From Candidatus Uhrbacteria bacterium (GTDB taxonomy: Bacteria > Patescibacteriota > Patescibacteriia > UBA9934 > GWF2-40-263), in assembly GCA_016188495.1 (NCBI GenBank), contig JACPHU010000006.1, positions 1,857-65,856 of the forward strand: a DNA stretch of 64,000 bases, given 5' to 3'. Every line of letters begins with the position of its first letter. Position 1 is the first letter of the stretch. Shown here piece after piece: positions 21,650 to 63,758 of the stretch. The notes beneath the pieces were generated by a model. It did no database searches. It was not told the origin of the DNA and worked only from the letters and a program-made list of their open reading frames with translations. The position numbers were made by a program, and so were the translations under genes.

Positions 21650-21650
21650 T

Positions 21651-22566: not shown

Positions 22567-22573
22567 ATCAGAT

Positions 22574-24060: not shown

Positions 24061-24066
24061 GTTCGT

Positions 24067-24597
24067 ATGCCTTACGTTAAGAAATTAGGTTTCACGCTTG
24101 TTGAATTGCTGATCGTGATTGCCATCATTGGCGTTCTGGTTGCTGTGATTTTTGTGGCGCTGGATCCTGCTACGCGCCTTGCGCAAGCACGTGACGCGGT
24201 GCGTCAAAACGATGTTGGAGAAATCCTTTCAGCGATCAAGTTGTATCAGGTAGATCATGGAGGACAGTCGTTAGATACGATCGCAAATCTTTCTCAGCTT
24301 GATGTCTATATGGCCGTCGATGGTGGCGGGATGAATGAAGGGTGTGATGACAATAATGTTTCTTGTACGACTCCTGTAACGCACGATACGCATTGCGTAA
24401 ATATTCATGAATTAATTCAAGAAGGATATTTGGCTGATATGCCCGTGAGTCCTTCCGGAGAGGTGATATGGGATGTTGGGGATAACACAGGTGATAACGG
24501 ATCAGGGTATACGATTTCTCTTGATACTGAGGGAATCGTGACCGTTCGTGCTTGTGAAAATGAGGCAACAAGTGTCGAAATTCAAGCTTCGAGATAA
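24067..24597 (+). CDS. type IV major pilin (paralog 2, tandem duplicate, about 65% identical to paralog 1)
   Basis: It reads LG|FTLVELLIVIAIIGVLVAV. The block structure is shared with the previous gene (DAVRQNDVGEILSAIKLYQVD, MPVSPSG, VRACE). Confidence 0.85.
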   Translation: MPYVKKLGFTLVELLIVIAIIGVLVAVIFVALDPATRLAQARDAVRQNDVGEILSAIKLYQVDHGGQSLDTIANLSQLDVYMAVDGGGMNEGCDDNNVSCTTPVTHDTHCVNIHELIQEGYLADMPVSPSGEVIWDVGDNTGDNGSGYTISLDTEGIVTVRACENEATSVEIQASR

Positions 24598-51146: not shown

Positions 51147-51338
51147 TGTGAGCCACCTTTTTGTTTTGTAGGTGTATAAAGGACGAAGAAGAACCTTGGT
51201 GAGATTGTATGAAATTCGCTGTCCTGTCAATGGACTTGACAGAGGGTTAAGAGGAGAGTAACTTAGTGTGTGTAAGACACTATAAAGCGTTTTACCCCAT
51301 AAAATAAGGAGACTTTTGGGTAACTTTGACACGTTCTA

Positions 51339-51367
51339 TTGACAAAAACACTGAAATCGGGTATAGT
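51339..51367 (+). promoter_or_regulatory. consensus sigma70 promoter driving the GC-rich island
   Basis: TTGACA, an exact 17-nt spacer, then TATAGT, followed by a ~160-nt leader. Confidence 0.55.
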
Positions 51368-51530
51368 GCTCTCTTCGTTCATTGGCAAAGTCTGGCTTGC
51401 CACGCCTTAAATACTCTTACATCAAAGTATTTAGAGCGCGGTAAGTCAGTAATAAAAAAAGTAGTTGATAGTCACCGGCATGGTTGTTGGTGGCTCAGAA
51501 ATCCAATCCCGAAAGGGAAGGAGAAAGCAA

Positions 51531-52613
51531 ATGTTGAATGAACAGTTCAAGGTCGCTCTGGTTGCCGAAGGTGTCAACGAGGAGAATCTCAAGCTCCTCG
51601 AGTCTCAGGAGCTGTGTGATGTCAGCGATTTCGCGACCCTGCAGCCTGCGGATCTGACTGTCGTCGGAATGAAGCTCGGTGGGATCAATAAGGTCTTCAG
51701 GGTTGTTCGAAGACTGGCGGCTCCCGTGGCCTCCACTCCGGCTCCGGAAGTTCAGATTCCCGTGACTCAGGTGACCCCGGTGTCCCTTCCTCCGGTCGTT
51801 CCGGTTCAGGTGGCTCCCGTGGCCCATGCTCCGGTTTCCTCCGGTGGGGGAGATCTGGGTACGCTGTTTTCGACGCTGATTCCGCCCCAGACCCCGCAGG
51901 AAGCGGCCGAAAGGCTCTGTCGTGCCCCGAGTGACGCAAAGAGCCAGGAGTACTGGAGGCAGTTCTTCGGTCAGGAGACCCTGATCGTCTCCTCGACTCC
52001 GGGCTCCATCGATCGCGACAAGACCATGGAAGCGGTCGAAATCTGGGTGACCTCCGGTGAGGCTCCTTCGGAGCTCGATGGAGTGCCTCTGCTGAGCATC
52101 AGCGAGTTCCTCCAGTCCACCTTCGGTGCGTGCCCCTTCACCGGGGACCGTATCATCCGAGGTGGGATGTCGCTGAAGACCAACGTTCACTACGGGTTCT
52201 TGCTCGGGAATGATGTTTCGCTCTCGGCGATCCAGAATAGCCCCGGAATGAACTTCGTGGCGTTCGCCGCCGAAACCGGCAAGATCACCCGCGACCTTCA
52301 GACCTGGAAGACGCGGATGCTCGAGCTTCGCAGCATGGTCCAGGGCAAGGATATCTCCAGCCCCACGGCCATCAAGGCGGCCGTCGCCGGATCCGCGTGG
52401 GATGAAGTCGCGACCGACTACATCCGTGACGCCAATTCCGGTGGTGTCGTCGCCATGCGCGCTCGGGCACGGCTGGTGACCCAGGCCAAGCGACGGACCG
52501 TTCGGGCCCGCAACGACCTGTCGGGAATCGGAGAGGCTCTGACCTCCGGTTTCGACAAGGTCACCCGCCAGGACGGCTCCGTCCCCCGTCGGGATTTCGA
52601 ATCCCGCGGCTGA
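51531..52613 (+). CDS. island gene A: hypothetical protein (small N-terminal domain, Pro/Val-rich linker, unknown C-terminal domain)
   Basis: A GGAAGGAG RBS precedes ATG 51531. Its GC3 is much higher than the backbone. The linker is APVASTPAPEVQIPVTQVTPVSLPPVVPVQVAPVAHAPV. A terminator follows at 52728-52752. Confidence 0.65.
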   Translation: MLNEQFKVALVAEGVNEENLKLLESQELCDVSDFATLQPADLTVVGMKLGGINKVFRVVRRLAAPVASTPAPEVQIPVTQVTPVSLPPVVPVQVAPVAHAPVSSGGGDLGTLFSTLIPPQTPQEAAERLCRAPSDAKSQEYWRQFFGQETLIVSSTPGSIDRDKTMEAVEIWVTSGEAPSELDGVPLLSISEFLQSTFGACPFTGDRIIRGGMSLKTNVHYGFLLGNDVSLSAIQNSPGMNFVAFAAETGKITRDLQTWKTRMLELRSMVQGKDISSPTAIKAAVAGSAWDEVATDYIRDANSGGVVAMRARARLVTQAKRRTVRARNDLSGIGEALTSGFDKVTRQDGSVPRRDFESRG

Positions 52614-52727
52614 TAGATCGATCAACTCCGTCGGTTCCGACCATGACGGCGCAAGGGTAGCACTCAGTGCCCGGTGTCTGGTTGGACCTTCGGCCATTAC
52701 TCTATTACCCCTACGAAGGGAGTCCCC

Positions 52728-52752
52728 TGGACTCCCTTTTTCACTAGGCGAT
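52728..52752 (+). terminator. intrinsic terminator after island gene A
   Basis: The hairpin gggagtcc/ggactccc is followed by a T6 run. Confidence 0.7.
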
Positions 52753-52856
52753 TTATTTTCAAAATGAATCGTGTAGCGAAAGCATGTAGGCTTTCAATCA
52801 GTATTTTAGATCGGTCCTTTTGGATCGATTGTGTTCACAACAAAGGAGAGAATTCA

Positions 52857-54014
52857 ATGTCCAAACCCAATGAACTCAGACATGACAACCTAGTAATCGG
52901 GGTGAATTTTCCGGTCAAGTCGACTAACGCCGGGACAGGGTTGGTGGGTGGCTTCCCCTGGCCGGTACACAATGCGGCCGACTATAAGGACCGTGTTCCT
53001 GCCGCGTGGTTATCGGCCATGGGGCCTCGTCATGTGATCTTTTTCCTGGGTGCACCTGACCCGACCCGTCATTTTGATGAACAGGGTCTTGCCGAGCACG
53101 AGGTGGAACTGGATCAGAACGGCTGTCCCCGCGATCGTGAGATGTGGTTTGATTTTCAGGGGATGAATACCCTTGATCGTCACGTTGCTGTTGTGCTCGG
53201 TGTCCAGGGACTCAATGCTCTGACCGGACTTCCGACTTCTTCGGAACACAAGAGAGGACTGTACAACGGTCCCGGGTGTCCGAAACCCGAGCAGTATCCG
53301 GATGTTTGTCCGGTGCACGGTACCCCGTTCGAAGATCATCGGCGGATGTGTTCGGACTGTGGGTTCGAGTGGCCGTATCAGAATTACGTCACCAACTCCG
53401 TGACCGATCCAATGTTCCGCTTCTGGTGGGATGGGTGGCGCGGGGCGGACGGCAAGATCCAGCAATTCGCCATGCGTCCGGCTTCGGCTGGTGTCGGCGT
53501 GGCCCAGCAGGTGCTGGGCGAGGATCGTGCGCTGGGACTGAGTCTGGCTGTGTTTCTCAAGAAGCGACCCAAGCCGGCTCCGGTTTCCTCCTATCGTCAC
53601 TCCGATTTCCTCGAGTCTGACATCGTTTCCAAAGGGTTTTTGGGAGGTGGTGGAAAGAAGGTCTATTCTTTTGGAATGGGCGGAGAAGAGGAGGAAGAGG
53701 TGTATCGTTCGCCCACCCTCGGAACCACACGCGAGGCCACTCGTGGAGACACTACTCGAGGTGGTGTCCTGGGCGGCCGTCCTTCCGTTTCTCGGATCGG
53801 TGCTCCGTCTCGGATGGAGTTCGTCGCCGGTCGAACGGTCTTTCAGAAACTCTATTCCGATAATTCCACCCTGGACGAGTGGAGGGATGAACCCGAGGTG
53901 ACCTTCACCTTGATTCCCGTGGACATGGCGTGGGCGGCCGAGGTAACCAAGTACGGTCCCACCACGCGACAAGTTGCCACCGGACCGTTCGCGGGTCTCA
54001 AGAGCGTCGGCTGA
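52857..54014 (+). CDS. island gene B: hypothetical protein (Cys/His cluster, Gly-rich low-complexity segment)
   Basis: An AAAGGAGAG RBS precedes ATG 52857. It contains CPVHGTPF...CSDCGFEW and FWWDGWRGADG, which match no recognized family. It is GC-rich. Confidence 0.6.
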   Translation: MSKPNELRHDNLVIGVNFPVKSTNAGTGLVGGFPWPVHNAADYKDRVPAAWLSAMGPRHVIFFLGAPDPTRHFDEQGLAEHEVELDQNGCPRDREMWFDFQGMNTLDRHVAVVLGVQGLNALTGLPTSSEHKRGLYNGPGCPKPEQYPDVCPVHGTPFEDHRRMCSDCGFEWPYQNYVTNSVTDPMFRFWWDGWRGADGKIQQFAMRPASAGVGVAQQVLGEDRALGLSLAVFLKKRPKPAPVSSYRHSDFLESDIVSKGFLGGGGKKVYSFGMGGEEEEEVYRSPTLGTTREATRGDTTRGGVLGGRPSVSRIGAPSRMEFVAGRTVFQKLYSDNSTLDEWRDEPEVTFTLIPVDMAWAAEVTKYGPTTRQVATGPFAGLKSVG

Positions 54015-54164
54015 TTTCCGACGTAACACGGTCAAGATCGATTCCCACGGAGTCGGCCCTTGACCCTTTTCTTGGGAAGAGAAGAGGAGTAATCCTTTGG
54101 CTCTTCTGAAGAGAAGAAATTTGCTTTCGACCTTTACAAATGAAGTTGAGATAAGGAGGTTTAG

Positions 54165-55004
54165 ATGAAAGGCAATAACACAGAGGCGACCTACTATCCT
54201 GGTAAGTCAGTGGCGAAAACCCCGCATTATGAGCTGTTTTACTGTGAGACCGAGAACGGTCGGCAGTGTCTCATGCAGATCGCTAAAGCACCGGAACACA
54301 ACGGGGTACTCGATCGGTTCGCATATGTGCTGCGCGAGCTCAAGCATAAGGCAGACGAGCTCGAAGAAGAACATGAAGAGAAGAAAAAGGATCCTGCTAA
54401 TGGGATTCCTGCTCACGTGTTCTTGAATTACGATCTTGGTTTCCCCCAGGTCGTCGACAGTTTCATCAGTTCCGAACAGGGTGGATGTCGAATCAATATC
54501 TTGGCCTTTAGGGAAGTTGAGCGCGTGTCTGACATGCACCCTCTGGCAAAGTATATTCGAGTGGCCAATGAGCGGTGCGATCTGCGAACCAGTATCTGGA
54601 TCATGGGCAGGACGCTCAAGTTGATCGATCTGGTGCATATGATGGGATTTTCTCTTCAGGAGATGAAGACAGGTAATATTCTCATTCAGCCTGAAGAACA
54701 TCACGTTGTGCTGTTTAATCCTGGCATTCAAATGTGTCCGGGAGAAGTTCCTTTGGAACAGCGGCGCAAGGAGATTGCTCAGGCGACCACGTCGGTTATT
54801 CAGTTGTTGGGCGGCAATATTCTTACACGAGAATTCCCCCAAGATCTCAAGTCGGAGATTGGGTGTAAGGAATATACGGATCATCTCCTCATGCTGGCCG
54901 CCGGAGGAGAATACGACGCCCATGCGGCGTATCGTCGTTTCTATCAGCTTATTGATCGGTTTTGGGAGCGGAAGTTTCATCGTGCTCAGTTTTTGGCACG
55001 CTGA
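54165..55004 (+). CDS. island gene C: protein-kinase-fold-like protein lacking the catalytic Asp residues (possible pseudokinase or atypical nucleotide-binding enzyme)
   Basis: A TAAGGAGG RBS is present. CLMQIAK resembles the beta3 Lys segment. HMMGFSLQEMKTGNILIQPEEHHVVLFNPG resembles the catalytic loop plus DFG region, with D replaced by Q and by N. Confidence 0.55.
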   Translation: MKGNNTEATYYPGKSVAKTPHYELFYCETENGRQCLMQIAKAPEHNGVLDRFAYVLRELKHKADELEEEHEEKKKDPANGIPAHVFLNYDLGFPQVVDSFISSEQGGCRINILAFREVERVSDMHPLAKYIRVANERCDLRTSIWIMGRTLKLIDLVHMMGFSLQEMKTGNILIQPEEHHVVLFNPGIQMCPGEVPLEQRRKEIAQATTSVIQLLGGNILTREFPQDLKSEIGCKEYTDHLLMLAAGGEYDAHAAYRRFYQLIDRFWERKFHRAQFLAR

Positions 55005-55040
55005 AAATAGACGAAACATGAACGAAAAGGGAGAGAAAAA

Positions 55041-56180
55041 ATGGGAAATCGTACCCCGTCTCGTGATACGTATGAAGAGGCAAAATCGACATATGTTCCG
55101 GATTCTGGACCTGCTACAGCTCGCGCTGAACAACAAGCGCGAAGGACAGGAAAACTTCATCCGCTGGTTGATCCGGCGGAATTCGGAGTGATCCGCCCTT
55201 CGCATATGCGAATGAAACAGCTTCTAAACGGGCTTTGGTCTGTGAATGTAGGAACACCATTGCCACGTCAGCGGCGCGTAGATACGACGGCCAGTATGGG
55301 TAATAACGTCGATGTGGTTCTTGGTGTCTTGCAGGATGCGTACGAGCTGGCTATGCAGGTTCTGCCTGTTGGGTATGACCTGCAGGAAGCCAATGAGATC
55401 TTCGGAGATATACAAGATAGGTTTGTGCTTTGCCGTTCGCAGTTTGAGATGCTCTCTGAGCGGATCGTGGAGCAGCTGACCTTGATGGTTCCTGAGCGTG
55501 ATGGCGGAGATGTTCCAGAAGACCCTCACTACGGGTTGTTTGGAGCAGCCTACTTGACCGATGCCTATATTAATCGCATCGGTCTTAAGGGTTACGACTT
55601 CACCGTCTCTGATGCAGAGGCTCGATACGAGTTGGAGGCACGACATCTTCGTCGAATTTTCGGAGATCAGGTCTTCGATAAGACGAAGGAAAACGGTTAC
55701 GATATTGATCCTCGGCATCTTCCCAGCACCAAAGAGGTGGTTCGTGAGCTTGCCAAACGATCTCATTATTTCTTCCTTCAGATCAAGTCCTCTTCACAGG
55801 CGACTCGTTTCTGGACGGATGTGTTCGGTTCTGAACGGGTCGTGCTGGTACCAGATGCCAAATATGTCCCTCATATTGAAGCCGTGATCATGGGTCTGAC
55901 CGAAGGGACCCTGAGTCTGTCGGACGTCACTCCGTTTCTCATGAAGAATGGCGTCGATCGCAATGACGCTCAACGAATCGTCCGGGCTGTGGGACATATT
56001 CCGATCGGCGCGCAGGCTGCTTTGCCCAACGTTGCCCGGCGTCCCAAAGCAGGTGACCTGTTTCGAGAGAAGCCTGTCGGTACGCAGACCAGTCCTTGGC
56101 CGCTGACCCCCGAGGAAATCGCCGCGTTTAATCTCGACTCTTCGGCAGAGCAGGACGAAGGCGAGATCAGCTGGGTCTGA
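55041..56180 (+). CDS. island gene D: hypothetical protein (379 aa)
   Basis: An AAAAGGGAGAG RBS is present. It is GC-rich and has no recognizable motif. Confidence 0.6.
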   Translation: MGNRTPSRDTYEEAKSTYVPDSGPATARAEQQARRTGKLHPLVDPAEFGVIRPSHMRMKQLLNGLWSVNVGTPLPRQRRVDTTASMGNNVDVVLGVLQDAYELAMQVLPVGYDLQEANEIFGDIQDRFVLCRSQFEMLSERIVEQLTLMVPERDGGDVPEDPHYGLFGAAYLTDAYINRIGLKGYDFTVSDAEARYELEARHLRRIFGDQVFDKTKENGYDIDPRHLPSTKEVVRELAKRSHYFFLQIKSSSQATRFWTDVFGSERVVLVPDAKYVPHIEAVIMGLTEGTLSLSDVTPFLMKNGVDRNDAQRIVRAVGHIPIGAQAALPNVARRPKAGDLFREKPVGTQTSPWPLTPEEIAAFNLDSSAEQDEGEISWV

Positions 56181-56188
56181 GGTAACAA

Positions 56189-56233
56189 CCCGCCCGACTG
56201 AACGACGAGGAGTTCTGTTCAGTCGTTCGGGCA
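56189..56233. repeat. family-A GC-rich hairpin repeat, copy 3, directly after island gene D
   Basis: It reads cccgcccgactgaacgacg-aggagttctg-ttcagtcgttcgggca. Confidence 0.7.
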
Positions 56234-56238
56234 AGCGC

Positions 56239-56286
56239 GGTCGAAGTGATTCCATAGGGAGTCATTTCGACCTTTTTTTGAAGAGA
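56239..56286 (+). terminator. intrinsic terminator
   Basis: The hairpin ggtcgaa...ttcgacc is followed by a T7 run. Confidence 0.65.
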
Positions 56287-56408
56287 GAAAAGAATAGAGA
56301 ATAGTCTTTTTACTCTCTTGAAAAGAAGGAAGTGTTGAATCGATACGGCCTTCGATAGGCTCAGGCAATAATGAGGTTTTTCAACATTTTTCATTGAGGA
56401 GATGATCC

Positions 56409-57785
56409 ATGGTCAGTAATGTTATTGTCCCCACCGACCATGGTCCTGGGGACGGTGGCAAGGGCGGAGTCGTTCATCGACTTTGTTGCGATCGTCGAGT
56501 CCATACCGTTTTGAAAGAAGGGATGTTTTGCGGTAATCATGGGATCTGTACGGCTACAGGGCAGCGTTATGCCTTTAGTTTGTGGGGATGCGGAACGTTG
56601 GGAGGCGTGAGGACTCACTTTACTCAGCGATTTGTTGCCTCGGCCGTTGGGCTCCTTAATGAAGCGCGAGATTTGCGATATTTATTTGGAATTCATGATC
56701 CCTTTGAGTTGCTTACGATAGACGAACGCACCCTGTTTGCCACGTCTTATCACGGCTTCATGTCGCGTCTGAAGGAACTTGCTCTGGGGAAGAATCCGCG
56801 CGGGACCGTTGGCACAGGAGCAGGCGCTGGTTATCGCGATGCGCAGCGAGTTCCGGAACTGGCTCTTTATGCTCGAGATTTGTCACGACCGGATTTGAGA
56901 GATCGTCTCGCTGCTGTTCGTGAACAGGTTATTCGTGATCTGGAGCCGATCATTCAGAATGGGTTTCTTCCGGAGGATCAGGAAGCAGCCGATCAAGAGA
57001 TCAGTCATCTGTATGATGATGGATTTCTCGAGTATGTTGTGGATCAATTCCGGCAGGTAGCACGTCTGGTCAAAGTCGTGGGGCCTGAATATCTGGGTCA
57101 AGAGATTCTTTCCAAAGACGGCGTTGTCGTCGTGGAAAAGTCTCACGGCATTCTGACGGACCATTATCAGGGTTTCCATCCGCACACCAGTGCGATTCGG
57201 ACATTGCCGTCTTTCACGCGCTCAATGCTCGAAGAGGCTGAGTACCGCGGACGGATCACGGATATTGCGGTGCATCGGGCGTATCAAATCCGTCACGGTG
57301 CAGGACCCATGCCAACGCATGATCCTGCCATGGGCGAGCACTTGTTGCCTGGCAGCAACAAGGATGAAAATCGCTACCAGGGCAAGGTCCGCGTGGGACC
57401 GCTTGATCTGGTGATGCTACGCTACGCCCTTGCCTGTGCGGGCCCTATGAACGGCCTCGCCCTCACTTGGTTTGATCAGGTTCAGCTCAACGGCGAGTGG
57501 AACATTTGTCACCGTTACCGTGGGGCAGATGATCCACGATTCTTTACACCAGAGGGCGAGATCAAGGTTCGACAGGGGGATGACGAAGATCAGCTTGCTC
57601 ACCAAGAAGCTCTTGGCAAAGCGTTGCTGGAAGTCACTCCTGAGATCACGACCTACCCAATCTCCAAGAACGCTTCGCGCGAAGAGCTGTACAAACTGTG
57701 TACGGACATCCTTCAGGAACATCTTGGAATCCCCGTAAGAATGATTTCGTTTGGCCCTACCGAACGAGACAAACTTTGCAAATAA
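56409..57785 (+). CDS. island gene E: highly divergent adenylosuccinate synthetase (PurA)-family protein
   Basis: It aligns by eye to PurA landmarks. VIVPTDHGPGDGGKGGVVHRL corresponds to VVLGTQWGDEGKGKIVDLL. GTVGTGAGAGYRDAQRV corresponds to GTTGRGIGPAYEDKVAR. EKSHGILTDHYQGFHPHTSA corresponds to [21 protein letters not shown]. The C-terminal ISFGPTERD corresponds to ISTGPDRTE. Several catalytic positions are altered. Confidence 0.7.
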   Translation: MVSNVIVPTDHGPGDGGKGGVVHRLCCDRRVHTVLKEGMFCGNHGICTATGQRYAFSLWGCGTLGGVRTHFTQRFVASAVGLLNEARDLRYLFGIHDPFELLTIDERTLFATSYHGFMSRLKELALGKNPRGTVGTGAGAGYRDAQRVPELALYARDLSRPDLRDRLAAVREQVIRDLEPIIQNGFLPEDQEAADQEISHLYDDGFLEYVVDQFRQVARLVKVVGPEYLGQEILSKDGVVVVEKSHGILTDHYQGFHPHTSAIRTLPSFTRSMLEEAEYRGRITDIAVHRAYQIRHGAGPMPTHDPAMGEHLLPGSNKDENRYQGKVRVGPLDLVMLRYALACAGPMNGLALTWFDQVQLNGEWNICHRYRGADDPRFFTPEGEIKVRQGDDEDQLAHQEALGKALLEVTPEITTYPISKNASREELYKLCTDILQEHLGIPVRMISFGPTERDKLCK

Positions 57786-57789
57786 AAAC

Positions 57790-57830
57790 GACCCGAGCAG
57801 TCACGACGACCGCTCGGGTTTTTCTTTTTT
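57790..57830 (+). terminator. intrinsic terminator ending the island
   Basis: The hairpin cccgagc/gctcggg is followed by a T5 run, then an AT-rich tract. Confidence 0.7.
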
Positions 57831-57859
57831 CTTCATCCCTTTACTACTCTACTACTTTG

Positions 57860-59743
57860 CTACTCACTACCTTTTTCTTTGGATACTTTCGGCAGAAAAA
57901 CATTTCTTACAAATAATTTCGTTGCTGTCTGTCGATATCCGGAATCCCAGAACATGCTTTGCCCATCAATCTGATCGGCATGGGGTGTTTGGATGCCTCC
58001 ATACGAAGGAAAAAAGCGTTCATATCCTTTGTGCATCAAACGGTATTGCAGGGTGTCGCGTTCTAATTCTTCCAAGTAGAGACCTCTGGCTTGGCGGCCA
58101 TGAATGGCGTTTGTCGGATCATCCGTCAAATAAGGCACCAGCAGTTTTTTACGCATGTCTTGTATGGCCCGCGTGTTACCTTCCCAAGCTGCTCCAAAAA
58201 GAACATGCGTCCAGGAACGTTCGCCCATGAACGGTTCAGATGTTTTTAGATCATTGCGAATCGTGAGCGTGTCTCCAGAGGTTTCAAGCCAAAATTGCAC
58301 AGCATCTCCTTCGATTCGTTCGTGAATAAATATGCGTTTCAGAAGATTTCGTATCTCTTCTTTTTGTTCCATCGGCGTTCCGGGTTTAACAAACACCGCG
58401 ACATCGATGTCGGAGTTTTGTGAACCGTATTTAAGCCTTGATCCAAATAAGAGAATAATAGGATAAACATATTTGGACAGTTCAGGATCTTTTTCTATGG
58501 CATGCGCGATATCGTTTATCTCGCGCAATTCTTTTTTCATCAGTTTGAGATTTTCAGAAAATGGTCCCTCGAGTGTGGGTAGAGAGATGTCTAACACACG
58601 AAGTTCTTTTTCATCCACCACATCTAGGCGATAGAGCCGGCGGAATGTTTTAGAAAGAGACTCTCGCAGATCAAAGGTTTCCTGTTCCTTCCAAAGATTT
58701 ATGAGGGTTCCATGGAACTGTTCGTACATTCTTTTTGCTTTTTCTGTATCCGTGTGCGCGATTTCTTCGATGGCTTTTCGGATTCCTTCAACGAGCGCTT
58801 TCTGGGTTTCAAGATGTACGTCTGGCGCAAGAAAGGCCTTTGCTGTTTCTTCACCAAACGTTTGGGTGACGACGACTGTTTTGATTCCCTCGCTCACTGC
58901 TTCGATAGATTTTCGTTTTTTTTCCTGTCTCATCCATGCCGTACGTTTTTTTGTTTCATATTCTTCTGTATCAATTTGCGCAAAGTCTCGTCCTAGACGC
59001 GCTTGGATTGATTCTAAGGTGATGGGTTTGATTTCCGGGATTTCTTTTTTTAGTGATTGAGTCTCTTGGGGAAAAAATCCTAGATCTGCCAACACAGGGA
59101 GTGTCTCTGTAATACTTTGTTTTAAGATGTTGTCTTCCGTCGTCTCTTTGAGGTCTGACACTTCCTGTGTTGTCATGAGACCTTTTTCAACAAGTTTTGG
59201 AATCAGGTGCGCCGCTTTCACGACCCGCGGAAGATCTCCGGTGCGCAGTTCTACTTCCATCACGTCACCATCCACAAAATTCGCACGAACATCCTGGATA
59301 CTCAACAATCGTTTCCACGTGTTCATGTAGACGTCTTTGAATCGTTCCATGGCGGGACGAAGAGTATCTGATGCAGGTTTCCAACTTGAATCAGGAAGAA
59401 ATTCAAAAGGGAGATACAAAAGGATTCGTCTATATTCAGGATAGGTTTCAAGAAGATCACTTACTGAAGTATAGAGATCCTCGATTTGGCCTTCTGTCAG
59501 GCAATGCTGTTCGACGGCTTCTTGAAGCGAAACATCGGGTCGTGGAAGACGATCTATCACAACCGTTAGCCGTTCATTGAGAACTCTGCGCGATTCTAAT
59601 TCCCCTAGAAATTCTTTGTTGTGTGAGAGCTCTTTAGCCCAGGTGTTTTCAAGCCCTGTTGGACGCAAAAAGGTCTCAATCGCCGGAGAAACCACAGGGA
59701 TTTTAGGTTCCATTTCAGCTCTTTGTTCTAAATTTTCTTTCAT
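57860..59743 (-). CDS. large hypothetical protein with a C-terminal Pol-beta-superfamily nucleotidyltransferase domain
   Basis: The NTase signature is LLFGSRLKYGSQNSDIDVAVFV (GS...DxD). Codon usage is backbone-like. The N-terminal ~430 aa is helical and of unknown function. Confidence 0.7.
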   Translation of the reverse strand: MKENLEQRAEMEPKIPVVSPAIETFLRPTGLENTWAKELSHNKEFLGELESRRVLNERLTVVIDRLPRPDVSLQEAVEQHCLTEGQIEDLYTSVSDLLETYPEYRRILLYLPFEFLPDSSWKPASDTLRPAMERFKDVYMNTWKRLLSIQDVRANFVDGDVMEVELRTGDLPRVVKAAHLIPKLVEKGLMTTQEVSDLKETTEDNILKQSITETLPVLADLGFFPQETQSLKKEIPEIKPITLESIQARLGRDFAQIDTEEYETKKRTAWMRQEKKRKSIEAVSEGIKTVVVTQTFGEETAKAFLAPDVHLETQKALVEGIRKAIEEIAHTDTEKAKRMYEQFHGTLINLWKEQETFDLRESLSKTFRRLYRLDVVDEKELRVLDISLPTLEGPFSENLKLMKKELREINDIAHAIEKDPELSKYVYPIILLFGSRLKYGSQNSDIDVAVFVKPGTPMEQKEEIRNLLKRIFIHERIEGDAVQFWLETSGDTLTIRNDLKTSEPFMGERSWTHVLFGAAWEGNTRAIQDMRKKLLVPYLTDDPTNAIHGRQARGLYLEELERDTLQYRLMHKGYERFFPSYGGIQTPHADQIDGQSMFWDSGYRQTATKLFVRNVFLPKVSKEKGSE

Positions 59744-59959
59744 AAGTACCTTAAAAATACTCTAAATACGGATCTTTTTCAATAAAAACACCCCGAAACA
59801 CGTCGGGGTTTTTCTATTGACAAAATGGCTATTTTATGGTACTTTATATCGTCTTTTGGGAGGTTTTTGGATCGATTGGTCCTTTAACTCTCTTTATGAC
59901 GCAATAAGTTTTTCGTTTTCGTTTCAGTTTTTTCAACGCACAATCTGGAGGAAGTACCC

Positions 59960-60890
59960 ATGGATCCACGAGAACTCACAGACAACGAACGCCGTCTCGC
60001 CGTACCCGAAGAGAAGCGAACCGGGATTATCCTGCTCATCAAGCAGGTATTGCTCCTGGATACTCTGGAGCAAGCAGCTTCTTTCTTCGTTGCTCTGCGC
60101 GGTCGCGCCGAAGGGCGAGTTGTGCTGACCTTCGGAGAACTTCGCACCTTGGCCAACACCGCCAAGATCGTTCAGGCGGGTGCGAAAGCGGGTATCGAGG
60201 ATGTGGAGAGCCAGGCAGTGGATTTTGCCGACGTCCTGGCCTCTATCGCTGATCCCAACATGCCCATCTGCGAGAAATGTCACCGCTATGCGGTTGACGT
60301 GGAAGGCAGTGTTGTCACCCTTATCAAGGGAGTTCGTTGCCCCCGGTCTTTACGAGATCAGTGACCTGGTTCGCGACGCTCTGGAACAGGAGGGACTCAA
60401 GACCGAGGAAGGGGAGATTAATGTGGCTCACTTCCTCATGTATCTGGCCCATGATCCTTCCGTCGCTTCCCGTTTCCGAGGCAAGGACGAGGTGCTCGTA
60501 TCATTGGGTAGGCCGAGTATGTTCGGAGCCTATGATCTGACCTCGGTTCGCGCCGAAGTGAGGAAGGGGTGGAAGCCCACCTTTGGCAACGAGACGCCGC
60601 CTCCCGTTCAGAAGAAGGCGAGTTCCGGTGCTCCTCTTTCTCTGACTCGGGAACAGATAAAGATTTTGAGGAAGATCCTCGGTGAGCTAATCTATGATCC
60701 CTCTGCCATCAGAATGGTCGTCGAAGACGCAGGTCTTATCGTATGGAGGATTGAGATAAGCGGAGTGCCAGAAATAATTTGGGAGAACATCATCAAGGAG
60801 GCAGACAAAGAGGTGCGTCTGCGTGCTTTGATCGAGACGCTCAGTGAGCGTTACCCCGCCAATCAGACGCTGAAGTCTTTTCTCAACTGA
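59960..60890 (+). CDS. GC-rich hypothetical protein with a C-terminal effector-associated-domain-like (EAD-like) module, interrupted by a frameshift in a C5 homopolymer (60340-60344)
   Basis: A GGAGGAAG RBS is present. The upstream frame ends ...LIKGVRCP. The downstream frame continues GLYEISDLVRDALEQEGL with no start codon. The C-terminal part SLTREQIKILRKILGELIYDPSAIRMVVEDAGLIVWRIEISGVPEIIWENIIKEADKEVRLRALIETLSERYPAN fits the EAD-style pattern. Confidence 0.5.
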
Positions 60891-60909: not shown

Positions 60910-60938
60910 GCAGGATCTACGAAGATCCTGCTTTTTTA
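60910..60938. terminator. bidirectional intrinsic terminator
   Basis: The hairpin gcaggatct/agatcctgc is followed by a T6 run. It lies between convergent genes. Confidence 0.7.
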
Positions 60939-62011
60939 TTCTCACATTTTTTTACGATTTTTCCTTTGGTCAAAATGCCTGATTTGTAGAGTTCAAGAAG
61001 TCCTAACAATGCGGCTAAAATGGTTGGGCCGGCGATGGAGCCGACGGCACCGAACGAGGCGAGGCCTCCCAGGACGCTCAAAAGGACCAGAAAGGAATTC
61101 ATGTGCGCTTTGCCGCCGATCAGGTGCGGACCCACGACGTTGTCGATGGTACTGACAAAGACAAGAGACCAAATCAAAAGACCAAGAGCGGCTCCTGTTG
61201 AACCGGTAAAAAAGAGATAGGCAATGGCGGGGATCAATACGATCGATGTTCCCAGAAGTGGGACAAGACCAACCAGTGCTGTGAGGGCTCCCCAAATAAG
61301 CGAACCGGGAACTCCGAAGATGGTCATTCCAAGTCCGGCGATGAATCCTTGGATGATCGCCACAAGCATGACGCCAAACACCACAGAGCGAATGGTGTTC
61401 ACGATACGTTTGAGGAGTTTTTCATCCGCTCCATCTTCTAACGGTGAGAGAGCGAGAACGTCTTTATAGAGTTTGTCTCGATTCACCAGAATGTAATAGA
61501 GCGATAAGAAGAAAATAAACGCGTGCAAAATGAGTTTGGTCGTGCTTGAAAAAAGATTACCGACATTTTCAAACGCCCAGGAGGCGATAGATTTCCCCAT
61601 CTGCGCTAGATCGATTTCCATCAGTTCTTTTTGTACAGGAGCAGGAAGGGCTTGAATCAACGGGGAAGTCGCGGGATTGAGTTTTTCAAGCCAGCTTGTG
61701 TCATCAAAAGATGTCTTAATCAGATCAGAGGCTTGTGTGACCATGAGAAAAAGGGTGATAAGCAATGGAATGAAGATTAAGAAAAATGTTCCAAGCACAA
61801 GCAGGATCGCTGAAAAACGAGGACGTTTCAGCCAGACTCGAAGTTTCCGGTCAATCGGTGACAAAATAACGGCTACCACTCCGGCAATCAGCAGAACTAA
61901 GATAAATGGCTGAATGACTCGCCAAAATAAATAAAGCACGACGGCGGTTACCAGAAGAAAAAACCATTTTTCAATCGTCATGTGCTCAGGAAGTTGTTTT
62001 GTCATAGTCAT
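60917..62011 (-). CDS. AI-2E family transporter (PerM-like permease)
   Basis: It has eight hydrophobic helices. The family-typical N-terminus is FLLVTAVVLYLFWRVIQPFILVLLIAGVVAVILSP. C-terminal GxxxG-rich helices are present. Confidence 0.75.
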   Translation of the reverse strand: MTMTKQLPEHMTIEKWFFLLVTAVVLYLFWRVIQPFILVLLIAGVVAVILSPIDRKLRVWLKRPRFSAILLVLGTFFLIFIPLLITLFLMVTQASDLIKTSFDDTSWLEKLNPATSPLIQALPAPVQKELMEIDLAQMGKSIASWAFENVGNLFSSTTKLILHAFIFFLSLYYILVNRDKLYKDVLALSPLEDGADEKLLKRIVNTIRSVVFGVMLVAIIQGFIAGLGMTIFGVPGSLIWGALTALVGLVPLLGTSIVLIPAIAYLFFTGSTGAALGLLIWSLVFVSTIDNVVGPHLIGGKAHMNSFLVLLSVLGGLASFGAVGSIAGPTILAALLGLLELYKSGILTKGKIVKKCENKKAGSS

Positions 62012-62075: not shown

Positions 62076-63758
62076 TTAAGGTTGTGTACTTGCACCCATA
62101 AGGTGTGATTGTGTGTTGGTACAGGAATTTTGCCAGAGCATCTGAATCTGCGCGCACATGTTTTCAATCTCGGTAGACGTAGTTTGGGTTGTCTGGATTT
62201 TTTCCCCTCGCAACCAAGCGAACGTCTGTTCTCGAGTTTCAAACGGTCCGTATACCTGATTGGTGCCAGAGTCGACGAACACCGTTGCCACCACCCTGGC
62301 ATAATCAGCTGGTGTGATGGAGAGCATCCAGAAGAGATGATCCTGACCGTCTGGGGTCACTGGACGCGGTTCAATAATGCGATAGGTTCCGCTGGAGTTT
62401 GCTCCTTCCCCTTCATGCCAGACGTAGTTGGGAAGAGCTTTCACGTACGAGATCACCTTTTTGGGTCCTTGCAGATTGCTCGGACGCCCTTCTTTGTCAT
62501 AGCGATAGACTTGTCGCTTGCCGGTTTTGCTGTTGATCAGATACACCCGCATGAGGGAGAACGCCTCCCCGTCGGGTTCTACGGTGGCAAGATAACTGTA
62601 ACTGCCATTTTCCATGGGAAGGAAGAACGGCATTTGCTCTTTTCCCGGAAGATCCGGAATTTCGATTTTCCCCGGACGTCGGATAAACCCGTACCACATT
62701 TGTTCCAAGAAGCTTTCGCCGACATCGTATCGTTCTGAGTAGATGTAGGTTTCCGCTAATTTTTCAGGGAACAGTCGTTGTGTACGAGACAGACGATCAT
62801 CGGATGCTGCTTTTGTGGGAGACAGATTTTCTACCGAGCCGTCTGCATGGAAGATCGCCACCCCGCCCCATTGCGGGATCATCAGACCCCACCAAAAACG
62901 ATAAGAGATATACGGAACCACACCAAGGATTTCCTGGACAGATCCATCTGTCTTATACACCGGGGCATAATAGATTTCAGGATAACTGTTGAGAAATCCA
63001 ACCTTTCGTATCAATTGGCGGTAGACGTCGTCTAGAACCTCCATTCCCTCGCCCCATTGGAACGGGGCGCTGGAGAGCGTCTTTACTCGTTGGGCAGCTT
63101 CGTCTGTCCCGCCATCATCGTAGTACATAAACCCTGTGTTGTGTTCAAACAGAGCATTGTACAAACCTTGGGGAACCAGAGGGGCGATATAGGCCACGCC
63201 CGTGCTGCTTCCAATAGGTCTGGTTTTTCCTGGGGTGAACTGGGAAGTTTGTGTGCGGCGCACGATTTCTTCTGCTGCCACTTGCGCAGGAGTGTAACGG
63301 ACAAGTGCATTTGAAACACGAGGAAGTGTATCGATTTCCTCAAATTGGGCATCTTTGTGGATCTGCACCCAACGCGCACCGCCTGAAAAGGCAATGACGA
63401 GAGCTGCGGCTAGCACAGAAGCCAATATCGAACTTCCGACGATAGGACTGAAGTAACCTCTCCACCCTTCTTCGGGAAAGATATATCTACGCAGAAAGCG
63501 GAAGGCCACATACAGCGTGAGCAACCCTGCAATCCACATCGGGGCTTTGAGAAAAGCGATTTCAAACACCCAGTGGTGCACCCATACCGGAGCTATTTGA
63601 TAGATCAGGAACAGACACACGCTCAACGGGATCATCATCCCTACATAATTAGCGAACAGAAATCGCATGAGACGATGAAACGTCGTTTTTTGCGTGTAGT
63701 GCTTCTCGACGTCTTTCTTGATACGTCTCATGATTTGCCACAGATCAAACGGACTCAT
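62076..63758 (-). CDS. hypothetical integral membrane protein with a large C-terminal soluble domain (560 aa)
   Basis: It is a long uninterrupted ORF with N-terminal TM helices (MMIPLSVCLFLIY, WIAGLLTLYVAF, ILASVLAAALVIAF). A terminator follows downstream. Confidence 0.6.
   Translation of the reverse strand: MSPFDLWQIMRRIKKDVEKHYTQKTTFHRLMRFLFANYVGMMIPLSVCLFLIYQIAPVWVHHWVFEIAFLKAPMWIAGLLTLYVAFRFLRRYIFPEEGWRGYFSPIVGSSILASVLAAALVIAFSGGARWVQIHKDAQFEEIDTLPRVSNALVRYTPAQVAAEEIVRRTQTSQFTPGKTRPIGSSTGVAYIAPLVPQGLYNALFEHNTGFMYYDDGGTDEAAQRVKTLSSAPFQWGEGMEVLDDVYRQLIRKVGFLNSYPEIYYAPVYKTDGSVQEILGVVPYISYRFWWGLMIPQWGGVAIFHADGSVENLSPTKAASDDRLSRTQRLFPEKLAETYIYSERYDVGESFLEQMWYGFIRRPGKIEIPDLPGKEQMPFFLPMENGSYSYLATVEPDGEAFSLMRVYLINSKTGKRQVYRYDKEGRPSNLQGPKKVISYVKALPNYVWHEGEGANSSGTYRIIEPRPVTPDGQDHLFWMLSITPADYARVVATVFVDSGTNQVYGPFETREQTFAWLRGEKIQTTQTTSTEIENMCAQIQMLWQNSCTNTQSHLMGASTQP

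Follow-up and report, generated by a model that had tools for sequence, protein, structure and literature searches.

The window, a 64,000-nucleotide stretch of DNA from Candidatus Uhrbacteria, contains a run of five genes, A to E, on the forward strand, facing a sixth, F, on the reverse strand. Gene A (51531-52613, 360 aa) encodes a protein with a SAM-like N-terminal domain, a Pro/Val-rich linker, a C-terminal domain and a basic tail with an SGIG motif; gene B (52857-54014, 385 aa) encodes a beta-rich protein into which a zinc-ribbon-like C-x2-H...C-x2-C segment is inserted and which has a disordered linker rich in Gly. Gene C (54165-55004, 279 aa), for a predicted pseudokinase of the protein-kinase fold, opens a conserved core that continues with gene D (55041-56180, 379 aa), for a vWA-like protein bearing a motif of the MIDAS type, and gene E (56409-57785, 458 aa), for a PurA-superfamily enzyme. 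Gene F (57860-59743, 627 aa), convergent with E, encodes a predicted nucleotidyltransferase of the Pol-beta superfamily, its N-terminal region long and its C-terminal region helical. The initial annotation had described A to E as co-directional genes with strong ribosome-binding sites, and both the ORF calls, identical on the public contig, and strong Shine-Dalgarno sequences 5' of each gene (GGAAGGAGA, AAAGGAGAG, TAAGGAGGT, AAGGGAGAG and TGAGGAGAT) agree with it. It was also right about the bipartite character of A, a small N-terminal domain followed by a Pro/Val linker, and about the Cys/His cluster of B, whose four residues (C151, H154, C165 and C168) are invariant; the predicted model of B is of low confidence (pLDDT 54).

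Signals and neighbours of the locus

The textbook promoter previously placed ahead of gene A (TTGACA-17-TATAGT, 51339-51367, forward strand) does match the sigma-70 consensus at 11 of 12 positions, and would leave a leader of about 160 nt, but the region holds 6 promoter-like sites against 6.4 in shuffles, that is, no excess; as read from sequence, it is a match to the consensus and no more. The leader matched no Rfam family, and no RNA element was detected across the locus. The terminators proposed after A, D and E all correspond to strong hairpins, the first two on the forward strand. That 3' of A (52715-52745; hairpin about 52715-52740) has the form GGGAGUC-CCCUG-GACUCCC followed by UUUUU (-19.5 kcal/mol, z -4.0), and 0 of 200 shuffles folded equally well. 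Between D and E, a 15-bp stem followed by U7 occupies 56239-56279 (hairpin 56239-56272; -25.9 kcal/mol, z -5.3); this hairpin had been assigned to a repeat family, but its arm has 3 matches in the window against 2.4 expected, so that the hairpin is real and no family is shown. The third, between the convergent E and F (57790-57819; -20.4 kcal/mol on the forward strand and -25.4 on the reverse), has U-runs on both sides and would therefore terminate F as well. The window neighbours of the module are RseP, RibE/RibH, an AI-2E transporter and a protein with an effector-associated domain (EAD1), whose gene lies just downstream at 60180-60890; no NAD gene adjoins the module in this window.

A conserved Patescibacteria module with a mobile core

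In this locus, Candidatus Uhrbacteria carries its version of a conserved but uncharacterised gene module of Patescibacteria. Genes C-D-E-F keep their synteny in 50 species of Patescibacteria belonging to several classes; the 50 genome loci all come from Patescibacteria-type MAGs (a few records are mislabelled), with Saccharimonadia, Falkow-, Wildermuth-, Peri- and Nomurabacteria, Paceibacterota, Minisyncoccia and Nanosyncoccus among the groups represented. In the same order and orientation, C is found in 49 of these loci, E in 48 and F in 42, and clustering yielded exactly five conserved families, including that of a SAM-like/linker protein, X, in 37-46 loci. D, initially taken for an orphan, has at least 835 homologues, the 120 best listed being 54-95% (mostly 54-63%) identical; those bearing a source name are from Patescibacteria. 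Within the module it ranks among the best-conserved proteins.

The unit of five genes first proposed is too narrow, since the convergent F belongs to the conserved module. Its orthologues, 29-50% identical, keep the same position and orientation in the 42 loci, with G434, S435, D445 and D447 invariant, and F matches Polbeta (2.4e-5) and, in PDB profile searches, HI0073 and GLD-2. By these matches, F is a module member predicted to be an intact nucleotidyltransferase of the Pol-beta type, akin to MNT and GLD-2. Gene A, whose only database relatives are itself and one fragment, is probably a divergent positional counterpart of X. The X-family HMM matches its residues 6-72 (E 2e-5 when six sequences were searched), hhalign of A against X gives E 0.002 at 14% probability, and its C-terminus is 27% identical over 198 aa to the X variant of one locus (L005); by sequence, the equivalence of A and X is weak. 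In two related Uhrbacteria-like genomes (L057 and L058), an X-like gene lies immediately upstream of B, and the X-like gene and B are positional counterparts of A and B at the same backbone position. B is lineage-specific and accessory to the X-like gene.

The C-D-E core is also found beyond Patescibacteria, in large phages and on megaplasmids. Gene D is present on at least 490 viral stretches, and about 200 Bixzunavirus mycobacteriophages are among the viral contigs. In 82 viral loci we found E in 76, D in 69 and C in 58, in the order C-D-E, with variable flanks and no fourth conserved gene beside them; the three genes are also present on 5 of 5 megaplasmid loci from Actinobacteria and Proteobacteria analysed with HMMs. 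F, absent from the phage collection, and X were found in neither phages nor plasmids, so the core works without them, and D and E form an obligate pair in loci without C, too. Only C-D-E, or D-E, constitutes the part that is mobile in evolution, and to it Patescibacteria would have added the convergent F and X; in the window, X would be the divergent A, shifted upstream, and the lineage adds B. Among the closest known counterparts are gp270 ('kinase'), gp271 (hypothetical) and gp273 ('PurA-like adenylosuccinate synthetase') of the Bixzunaviruses Bxz1/I3, known from genome annotation only, which are homologous to C, D and E, respectively, and arranged alike (PHROGs 3043, 2971 and 1211). They share largely the same derived E active-site signature and the loss of the HRD Asp in C, but differ in the lack of F, X/A and B, in small inserted ORFs and in a shorter D (about 310-340 aa), and are only about 25-30% identical to the window proteins.

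The initial annotation had argued from strongly G/C third positions for recent horizontal acquisition. The backbone has a mean GC3 of 0.421 (sd 0.072, n=37). A, at 0.745 the highest of the locus, and B, at 0.622, are clear outliers (z about 4.5 and 2.8), but C (0.550), D (0.524) and E (0.514) are only modestly raised (z 1.3-1.8 for the three). Moreover, an elevated GC3 in C, D, E and X, though not F, recurs lineage after lineage among Patescibacteria loci, for example 0.79 in D and 0.80 in X against 0.44 in the flanks of locus L007, and 0.91-0.92 against about 0.5 for the X-like genes of L057 and L058. Because the rise recurs across lineages, it is no sign of recent transfer; it is a property of the module, possibly reflecting expression-linked codon bias.

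A recently acquired island, for instance a defence island whose kinase-like protein and PurA-like ligase would make or alter a nucleotide signal, is very unlikely in our estimation. Its composition differs from that of the backbone, the cassette is mobile in phages and plasmids, an EAD1 gene is close by, and there are weak PADLOC matches of C to the kinase system PD-T4-6 (0.007) and of F to PDC-S09. Yet no PADLOC family is significant, the GC3 excess is found in many lineages, and synteny across about 50 species, with D and E about 35-62% identical, is far above usual defence-island conservation; X-like and B genes hold the same backbone position in relatives. Defence systems are, besides, rarely carried by lytic jumbo phages. 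Nothing favours a role in defence or the signal-generating one once suggested; the genes around the module point towards NAD/ADP-ribose metabolism instead. Relatives thus do show a conserved syntenic context, but the families concerned are not ordinary housekeeping ones.

The proteins of the core

As first annotated, E is a divergent member of the PurA family: it matches PF00709 over its full length (5e-28), with the GDxGKG P-loop and the PurA fold over its whole length. In common with PurA (PF00709; TIGR00184; EC 6.3.4.4), it retains Asp13, Lys16, His41, the guanine-specificity Asp333 and Ser414. In contrast, N38, T129, R131, R143, Q224, V273, T300, T301, R303, R305 and K331 are changed in 37 of 37 CPR members examined, and phage homologues have most of the same changes. 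Ligands of the IMP 5'-phosphate and base are replaced (N38Q, T129V/I, R131T, R143E, Q224H, V273H), as are those of aspartate (T300Y/W, T301Q, R303 deleted, R305V), and K331 becomes W. The old aspartate pocket is now aromatic or hydrophobic, and the rebuilt pocket is strongly conserved (H224, H273, Y/W300, Q301). Residue by residue, this comparison shows that E keeps all that PurA needs for GTP binding and gamma-phosphate transfer to a substrate oxygen, and has lost the residues holding the IMP 5'-phosphate and both aspartate carboxylates. The first half-reaction, from GTP gamma-phosphate to substrate oxygen, is probably common to both; E differs further in being always paired with a vWA-like protein.

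It is most improbable that E is a housekeeping adenylosuccinate synthetase acting on IMP, aspartate and GTP, or a PurZ-type enzyme for diaminopurine DNA, with unrelated neighbours. Besides the full-length PF00709 match, names point that way: the best PHROG, phrog_1211, is annotated as PurZ-type, and RefSeq (PGAP) calls the plasmid homologues 'adenylosuccinate synthetase'. The equivalog models, however, score far under their cut-offs (TIGR00184: 65.8 bits against 395.6, or one sixth), and the loss of aspartate (T300, T301, R303, R305) and IMP-phosphate (N38, T129, R143) ligands is family-wide. In PurZ, as summarised in a preprint, Ser replaces Asp13 and aspartate is still used (bioRxiv 10.1101/2025.10.22.683976). 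E, which shares with PurZ/PurZ0 of the phage 2-aminoadenine pathway the condition of a phage-borne divergent PurA paralogue, keeps Asp13 instead of this Ser hallmark and has no aspartate site. Its partners are the pseudokinase and the vWA-like protein rather than DatZ/MazZ, a domain search of A to F finding no DatZ- or MazZ-type domain, and it co-occurs strictly with D, and usually with C, in three unrelated kinds of replicon.

C had been described as a kinase fold without its catalytic Asp, and this holds. Its family profile matches CK2 catalytic-loop regions (2e-8), and C matches phrog_3043 'kinase' (1.2e-5) and, by hhalign, phage I3 gp270 (probability 98.8%, E 1e-16). The HRD Asp and VAIK Lys are not conserved in the family, and the window protein has Asn at the DFG-Asp position; by these residues, C is a predicted pseudokinase. 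One metagenomic protein (P0184), from a single short contig, is a C-D fusion.

For D, searches of its sequence against Pfam and PDB gave no match, and hhalign aligned it with phage I3 gp271 (probability 96%, E 2.6e-9). The family has an invariant Met-Gly start, a C-terminal W-L/V and a MIDAS-type motif (VDTTASMG in D, consensus DTTGSM). Foldseek of the low-confidence model (pLDDT 56) returned integrin beta-I, NorD and VWF-A domains at the top, as weak matches (E at least 0.03). Mainly from the motif and these fold matches, D is likely to be vWA-like. A vWA/MIDAS protein adjoining a kinase-fold protein and an NTPase recalls the TerY-P triad and MoxR-vWA (NorQ-NorD) systems; C-D-E differs in lacking PP2C phosphatase and AAA+ MoxR, and in that its kinase has no catalytic Asp and its NTPase is PurA-type.

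PurA is an established member of the SIMIBI/BioD-like class of P-loop NTPases, and E might accordingly be a GTP-driven switch and not a ligase, standing in the AAA+ place of a remodelling or metal-insertion system analogous to NorQ-NorD or CbbQ-CbbO, with the vWA MIDAS engaging a target protein. The obligate D-E pairing even without C, NorD (NorQD complex) among the best matches of the D model, and the disappearance of both small-molecule substrate sites of PurA from E would fit. We nevertheless hold this for decidedly unlikely: E keeps Asp13 and His41, residues that PurA uses to deprotonate its substrate and to transfer the phosphoryl group rather than for plain hydrolysis, its rebuilt, conserved pocket (H224, H273, Y/W300, Q301) hints at a new ligand and not at the absence of one, and no conserved candidate client protein adjoins the cassette in phages.

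A possible link to NAD and ADP-ribose

Neither the protein-family libraries searched nor any paper that we found describes or explains the C-D-E system, and the earlier suspicion of an uncharacterised system, with a kinase-like protein and a highly divergent PurA relative at its centre, stands. Its neighbours elsewhere point to NAD. An NrtR gene divergently adjoins the cassette on megaplasmids of four alphaproteobacterial lineages (Agrobacterium/Allorhizobium, Rhizobium leguminosarum, Rhodovulum, Acetobacter), and a NUDIX hydrolase gene follows E in the same operon in two actinobacterial genera, Rhodococcus and Tsukamurella. PncA, PncB, NadD, NadE, NrtR and ADP-ribosylglycohydrolase flank the module in Saccharimonadia (phylogenetically non-independent loci), and PncA adjoins it in Falkowbacteria. 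In phages NAD genes are only occasional neighbours: NAMPT lies 3' of E in 4 viral loci, and Rhizobium phage TM30 has genes for a PRTase and a cytidylyltransferase upstream. NrtR-family regulators can also control non-NAD genes, and no shared operator was found in the NrtR-C intergenic regions.

From sequence and gene context, we lean, by a little, towards an undescribed GTP-dependent enzyme system tied to NAD/ADP-ribose and encoded, here, by the Candidatus Uhrbacteria version of the module. GTP would activate an oxygen of a non-IMP substrate on E, which would then be coupled to a neutral nucleophile; C and D would be partners without catalytic activity of their own, binding or gating either the substrate or the enzyme, and the pathway may serve NAD/ADP-ribose homeostasis within an NrtR-type regulon. 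The version that we favour is speculative: ADP-ribose would be re-used in a reaction driven by GTP, such as ADP-ribose + nicotinamide + GTP -> NAD+ + GDP + Pi. If true, it would mean NAD salvage in Patescibacteria, and in phages a counter to NAD-depleting immunity. A vWA protein and a pseudokinase have no obvious part in a small-molecule pathway.

The substrate could instead be a macromolecule, E activating a base lactam oxygen in RNA, as TiaS/TilS do, or a protein-borne group, F adding a nucleotide, and the abundant X/A being substrate or scaffold. The lost 5'-phosphate clamp (R143, T129) would fit an internal nucleotide, F is predicted to be an intact nucleotidyltransferase, GC3 is highest in X and A, and a polynucleotide kinase, Thg1 and an RNA-repair HAD are occasionally near the cassette in phages. 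This explanation appears unlikely, as the core works without F and X in phages and plasmids, the genes that recur beside it are those for NrtR, NUDIX and NAD salvage and not those for RNA modification, and the locus has no detected RNA element.

The NAD/ADP-ribose reading would set C-D-E beside the phage NAD+ reconstitution pathways NARP1 (Adps + Namat), NARP2 (NadV + NMNAT) and NARP3 (PnuC + NadR-like) (bioRxiv 10.1101/2024.02.11.579819; PMC13464706). The protein families are entirely different. Both are autonomous small cassettes in phage accessory regions with a NAD/ADP-ribose link, suggested for C-D-E by context only; the proposed roles are alike, and NAMPT or NMNAT-like genes sometimes adjoin C-D-E.

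The locus and its conservation in Patescibacteria

The five co-directional genes A to E reported in the initial annotation were recovered on the forward strand at window positions 51531-52613 (A), 52857-54014 (B), 54165-55004 (C), 55041-56180 (D) and 56409-57785 (E), with the same gene calls on a public metagenomic contig, and each of them is preceded by a strong Shine-Dalgarno sequence. Proteins A and B are 100% identical to those of a Candidatus Uhrbacteria MAG, which places the organism in the Patescibacteria (CPR). Gene F, on the minus strand (57860-59743, 627 aa), abuts E convergently, with no gene of the SAM-like/linker family X in between. Terminator-type hairpins with U-runs are present 3' of A, D and E, as claimed: at about 52715-52740 (forward strand, -19.5 kcal/mol), at 56239-56272 (forward strand, -25.9 kcal/mol) and at 57790-57819, the last being bidirectional and common to E and the convergent F. 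The hairpin after D had also been assigned to a repeat family, but copies of its arms are no more numerous in the window than expected by chance. As for the promoter TTGACA-17-TATAGT (51339-51367), it matches the consensus at 11 of 12 positions, but promoter-like sites are no commoner in the region than in shuffled sequences. A leader of about 160 nt (51368-51530) separates this match from gene A, and an Rfam scan of 51200-60300, leader included, revealed no RNA element. Gene A, with a promoter in front and a terminator behind, is arranged as would suit a first gene with high expression.

Protein D, initially described as an orphan, has 835 homologues; every one with a named source comes from Patescibacteria, and identity to D is mostly 54-63% among those listed. 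A pattern scan restricted to one genome per species yielded 50 loci, from Saccharimonadia, Falkow-, Wildermuth-, Peri- and Nomurabacteria, Paceibacterota, Minisyncoccia and Nanosyncoccus. C lies directly 5' of D in 49/50 loci and E directly 3' of D in 48/50, while a convergent, downstream F homologue is found in 42/50, the gaps corresponding mostly to contig ends. Unsupervised clustering of all ORFs of the 50 loci delivered exactly five families present in 37 to 46 loci, namely C, D, E, F and X, and no sixth conserved family, every other cluster being found in at most 10 of the 50. The A-E unit first proposed was thus too small: the conserved module takes in F, and X is also one of its families. 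Between classes, D and E are kept at roughly 35-62% identity. Much of bacterial diversity lies in Patescibacteria, whose metabolism is minimal; a five-gene module preserved from class to class probably plays a central part in their life, and it has no assigned function.

Composition had been the argument for a recent horizontal acquisition of A-E. The contrast in GC at third codon positions (GC3) is strong for A and B (0.745 and 0.622, outliers with respect to 37 backbone ORFs at 0.421 ± 0.072), whereas C, D and E are just modestly raised (0.550, 0.524 and 0.514). Among the 50 loci, C, D, E and above all X, but not F, exceed their flanks in GC and GC3 in most lineages: the GC3 of D and X is, respectively, 0.79 and 0.80 versus 0.44 for the flanks in one locus (L007), 0.68 and 0.77 versus 0.38 in a second (L017), and 0.62 and 0.69 versus 0.28 in a third (L040). 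As the same genes show this bias in many genomes, it is a property of the genes, and composition is no sign of recent transfer; we infer that the raised GC3 would reflect expression-linked codon bias. Ribosomal and EF-Tu genes, sought as a GC3 yardstick for high expression, were absent from the sequence examined.

With the module syntenic in relatives and the raised GC3 of the same genes recurring across lineages, recent acquisition is not supported. A recent defence or signalling island, which a compositional contrast might have favored, conflicts with the synteny of the module, with its degree of conservation, and with the lack of any significant match in PADLOC-DB 2.0, where the best scores (0.004-0.03) concerned generic kinase and NTase models only. 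More broadly, A, B and D had no match in Pfam, NCBIfam, PHROGs or PADLOC, where C, E and F gave generic kinase, PurA and NTase signals only. Of the proposal that this is the best candidate for an undescribed system in the window, a real system devoid of assigned function persists, but it is a widespread conserved module and not a private, recent import.

Several other genes of the window were noted. Directly beyond F, 60180-60890 (forward strand, GC3 0.63) encodes a 236-aa protein with a C-terminal Effector-associated domain 1 (EAD1, PF19955, 4e-11), an adaptor domain typical of NTP-dependent conflict systems; this gene is not conserved beside the module in other genomes. A 560-aa ORF without Pfam match (62076-63758, minus strand, GC3 0.53) adjoins an AI-2E family transporter gene (60917-62011). 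Elsewhere, a co-directional gene run at 17033-24597 (forward strand), in which the product of 20231-21649 has a prepilin-like N-terminus (GFSLVEVIVAIALLG), suggests, from translations alone, a type IV pilus or competence cluster; such clusters are common in Patescibacteria.

The active site of the PurA-superfamily protein E

E is, as proposed, a very divergent member of the PurA family, matching PF00709 (5.3e-28, residues 14-453) over its full length. It fails both PurA equivalog cut-offs, with 65.8 bits against 395.55 for TIGR00184 and 63.2 against 402 for NF002223, that is, one sixth of the cut-off. Residues were compared, in E. coli PurA numbering, through an alignment to an E. coli sequence that agrees with the PDB alignment over residues 4-354. 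The GDxGKG P-loop, Asp13, Lys16, His41, Asp333 and Ser414 are kept among the 37 Patescibacteria members (D13, K16 and H41 in 36 or 37 of the 37). The IMP ligands are replaced in these members (N38Q, T129V/I, R131T, R143E/D, Q224H and V273H), including the 5'-phosphate ligands N38, T129 and R143; position 38 is C in the window protein versus Q in the family. The aspartate ligands are replaced in all 37 (T300Y/W, T301Q, R303 deleted, R305V/I), and K331 has become W. In phage members, most of the derived pocket recurs, namely N38Q, loss of T129, R131 and R143, V273H, T301Q, deletion of R303 and loss of K331, with position 300 aromatic or His (W/H) and position 305 hydrophobic (F/I); unlike the Patescibacteria proteins, they retain Gln224.

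Given the kept GTP-binding and catalytic residues and the lost ligands, E should bind GTP and transfer its gamma-phosphate; the acceptor should not be IMP, and aspartate should not be used. We propose that E would activate with GTP an oxygen of a non-IMP substrate, and couple a neutral, possibly aromatic, nucleophile, since the former aspartate pocket is now made of Y/W, Q and V.

The more conventional readings are that E is a housekeeping PurA, or a PurZ. E does share with PurA the fold, the P-loop and Asp13/Lys16/His41, but it lacks the aspartate residues and the IMP ligands of that enzyme. The hallmark of PurZ, as described in a preprint (bioRxiv 10.1101/2025.10.22.683976), is a Ser replacing Asp13 together with a retained aspartate site, whereas E keeps Asp at position 13 and has no aspartate site. 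Moreover, the DatZ/MazZ-type hydrolases (dATP/dGTP) that partner PurZ are not at the locus of E, no HD or MazG-type domain being detected by Pfam in A-F and the flanking genes. Active-site residues and model scores thus contradict both readings, and the public labels 'adenylosuccinate synthetase' and 'PurZ-type' are contradicted by the active site as deduced from sequence. Where purine biosynthesis is scored in metabolic reconstructions of Patescibacteria and phages, the mislabelling of E has consequences. PGAP calls the E homologues of four RefSeq plasmids (L144, L145, L146 and L149) 'adenylosuccinate synthetase', with a purine-biosynthesis GO term, and the D homologue of Rhodovulum (L150) is annotated 'TonB-dependent receptor'; these plasmid labels are probably mis-annotations.

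Proteins encoded around E

The initial description of C as a kinase fold devoid of catalytic Asp was correct: the HRD Asp is absent, and the DFG-type position of the window protein is Asn (LFNPG). The family profile matches CK2 at 2.3e-8, and a phage C homologue exceeds the Pfam Pkinase threshold (35.6 versus 31.7). The HRD position reads V-G-R-like in Patescibacteria members and H-G-A in phage I3, the VAIK Lys is not conserved, and most members have a DFG-like Asp, from which the window protein differs. Judged by these motifs, C is a pseudokinase.

In D, a MIDAS-like motif, DTT(G/A)SM (D81, T83 and S85), and a second motif, FTVSD (D191), have invariant residues in 20/20 sequences; the phage-type motif is LDVTGSM. 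The metal motif is therefore DxTxS, as opposed to DxSxS in vWA domains. The Met-Gly start is invariant and a C-terminal W-L is conserved. Profile searches found neither a Pfam VWA match nor a PDB sequence match, and the low-confidence AF2 model (pLDDT 55.8) matches folds of the vWA type only, and weakly, with integrin beta-I, NorD and VWF-A1 as top Foldseek matches (E >= 0.03), so that these vWA-like fold matches are only indicative. A metagenomic C-D fusion of 679 aa (P0184), with a C part of the Saccharibacteria pseudokinase type, is encoded on a single 3.9-kb Logan contig and, if real, supports a physical C-D complex. C and D would together make up a sub-complex with an adaptor or regulatory role. 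The N-terminal Gly of D, which is invariant, was also considered as the nucleophile in place of aspartate; the idea was dropped, as this terminus is buried in the C-D fusion.

A MoxR-vWA-like, GTP-driven remodelling system is a possible reading of a cassette that includes a vWA-like protein. In the TerY-P triad and in MoxR-vWA systems, the vWA gene is adjoined by a PP2C phosphatase and an active kinase, or by an AAA+ MoxR ATPase; searches of the locus in this window and of the genes conserved beside the module detected neither a PP2C nor an AAA+ MoxR domain.

F, a protein of the Pol-beta nucleotidyltransferase superfamily, has an intact G-S ... D-x-D motif (G434, S435, D445 and D447, invariant in 21 sequences). 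It matches Polbeta (2.4e-5) and NTP_transf_2 (0.003), both under the Pfam cut-offs, as well as HI0073 and GLD-2 in PDB profile searches, and its nucleotidyltransferase motif is of the MNT/GLD-2 type.

X, of about 330-430 aa, usually lies between E and F in the 50 loci, and consists of a SAM-like N-terminal domain (PDB profile searches gave a weak SAM-domain match only), a Pro/Ala-rich linker and a C-terminal domain. Gene A encodes the same architecture, and the X HMM matches its N-terminal domain; its database relatives are A itself and one fragment. As hhalign gave low probabilities for A against two X forms (14% and 3%), the equivalence of A and X rests on architecture and position. B has five relatives only. 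In two related Uhrbacteria-like genomes (L057 and L058), B is immediately preceded by an X-family gene, at an unchanged backbone position (VanW, TrmB, NUDIX, RibE ... AI-2E transporter, M50 protease), in loci without D, E and F. In these relatives the GC3 is 0.91-0.92 for the X-like gene and 0.80-0.82 for B, versus about 0.5 for the neighbors. This pairing suggests that A and B are relatives or accessories of X restricted to the lineage, which in this window adjoin C-D-E-F. The Cys/His cluster noticed in B is a conserved Cys/His ribbon in a beta-rich protein; its AF2 model (pLDDT 54) is uninformative, with generic beta-sandwich matches, and profile searches gave no PDB match.

In L057, the X-like gene is followed by tandem B paralogues (L057:10001-11155 and L057:11288-12280) that are 54% identical over the N-terminal 220 aa, the three genes having a GC3 of 0.74-0.92 versus about 0.5 for their neighbors. 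In L058, a 521-aa protein encoded directly after the B homologue (L058:11241-12806) has a Cys-rich N-terminal region and, near its C-terminus, a C-like kinase region (A2 HMM, E 5e-4; Pkinase, 0.011); possibly this is a C that was fused or expanded, at a locus where D, E and F are absent.

Phage and megaplasmid cassettes and their NAD-related neighbors

Among annotated proteins, E is closest to the 'PurA-like' proteins found in about 200 Bixzunavirus (cluster C1) mycobacteriophages (E 1e-27, with 27% identity across 95% of the length), and Rhizobium phages also have relatives. In phage I3 the neighboring gene products, gp270 (annotated 'kinase') and gp271 (hypothetical), are by profile comparison homologous to C (E 1e-16, probability 98.8%) and to D (E 2.6e-9, probability 96%), respectively; phage C, D and E belong to PHROGs 3043, 2971 and 1211. 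In IMG/VR, D is encoded by at least 490 stretches, and many of these lie on contigs of 100-440 kb. Of 82 viral loci, 76 have E, 69 have D and 58 have C, in the order C-D-E, at times as D-E alone or with small insertions. No fourth conserved phage gene emerged from clustering or from a Pfam census covering 86 flanking proteins, and F has no homologue in the phage collection. The cassette is also present on 21 plasmid records, from Rhodococcus, Tsukamurella, Agrobacterium/Allorhizobium, Rhizobium, Acetobacter, Rhodovulum, Methylorubrum and Variovorax. Six plasmid loci analyzed with HMMs have the full C-D-E order; in Methylorubrum only E is matched by HMM, adjoining a tblastn match to D, and the Rhodovulum cassette looks degraded. 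The three genes are thus adjacent, co-directional and in the same order in Patescibacteria, phages and megaplasmids.

Two IMG/VR contigs catalogued as viral, 3300042731_008311 (L060) and 3300028454_000294 (L061), with D and E 41-51% identical, were discarded as phage evidence: their C-D-E is of the Patescibacteria type (L061 also has X and F), which gives them the look of Patescibacteria DNA; fragments of Patescibacteria genomes, or contigs bearing a prophage, are more probable here than free phages.

NAD-related genes recur around the cassette. In Saccharimonadia, the genes around the module encode PncA, PncB, a large NUDIX protein, NrtR, NadE, NadD and an ADP-ribosylglycohydrolase, and PncA adjoins it in one Falkowbacteria genome. 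In four alphaproteobacterial lineages (Agrobacterium/Allorhizobium, R. leguminosarum, Rhodovulum and Acetobacter), the divergent neighbor of C carries an NrtR winged-helix domain (E 2e-15 to 4e-23), with no operator palindrome shared by the NrtR-C intergenic regions; Rodionov and co-workers reportedly found in 2008 that NrtR regulators control NAD synthesis and salvage genes and respond to ADP-ribose. In Rhodococcus and Tsukamurella, a NUDIX hydrolase gene follows E in the same operon, overlapping its stop codon in Tsukamurella (NUDIX calls are from Pfam scans, a Nudix-box regular expression being too strict). NAMPT follows E in four viral loci, and a ComF-like PRTase and a cytidylyltransferase are encoded upstream of the cassette in Rhizobium phage TM30. 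The flanks are otherwise variable in phages, Pfam detected no NrtR or NAD-salvage gene near the locus of this window, and a macromolecule-modifying system is a possible alternative to an NAD-related one.

Our tentative proposal, which we consider plausible but rather unlikely to be right as a whole, is that C-D-E is an unrecognized three-protein system, in which a PurA-type GTP-dependent enzyme aided by C and D would catalyze an NAD/ADP-ribose reaction outside current maps. The pathway would serve NAD/ADP-ribose homeostasis, and in Patescibacteria F and the X/A protein, taken as abundant, would extend the system. One possibility is that a single enzyme rebuilds NAD+ from ADP-ribose and nicotinamide, through the speculative reaction ADP-ribose + nicotinamide + GTP -> NAD+ + GDP + Pi. 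The NAD-reconstitution pathways NARP1, NARP2 and NARP3 use proteins unrelated to C-D-E (bioRxiv 10.1101/2024.02.11.579819; PMC13464706). Such a reaction, if true, would be a fourth, mechanistically new route, shared by ultra-small symbiotic bacteria and phages, which phages would use against NAD-depleting immunity; should the NAD/ADP-ribose link hold, it would bring a new enzyme chemistry to the conflict between phages and bacteria over NAD. A literature search of incomplete coverage found no functional study of the cassette, and 'PurA-like' only in genome announcements. As the cassette is present in about 200 well-studied, tractable mycobacteriophages (Bxz1/I3) and on megaplasmids of culturable hosts (Rhodococcus, Agrobacterium and Rhizobium), its role is testable outside uncultured organisms.

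Directly 5' of the D-E pair of Rhizobium phage RHph_TM30, gp016 (L063:7417-8208) encodes a protein with a Pro-rich linker and a long Met/Gly-rich tail which, without a significant HMM match, resembles the Met/Gly-rich segment of Patescibacteria X.
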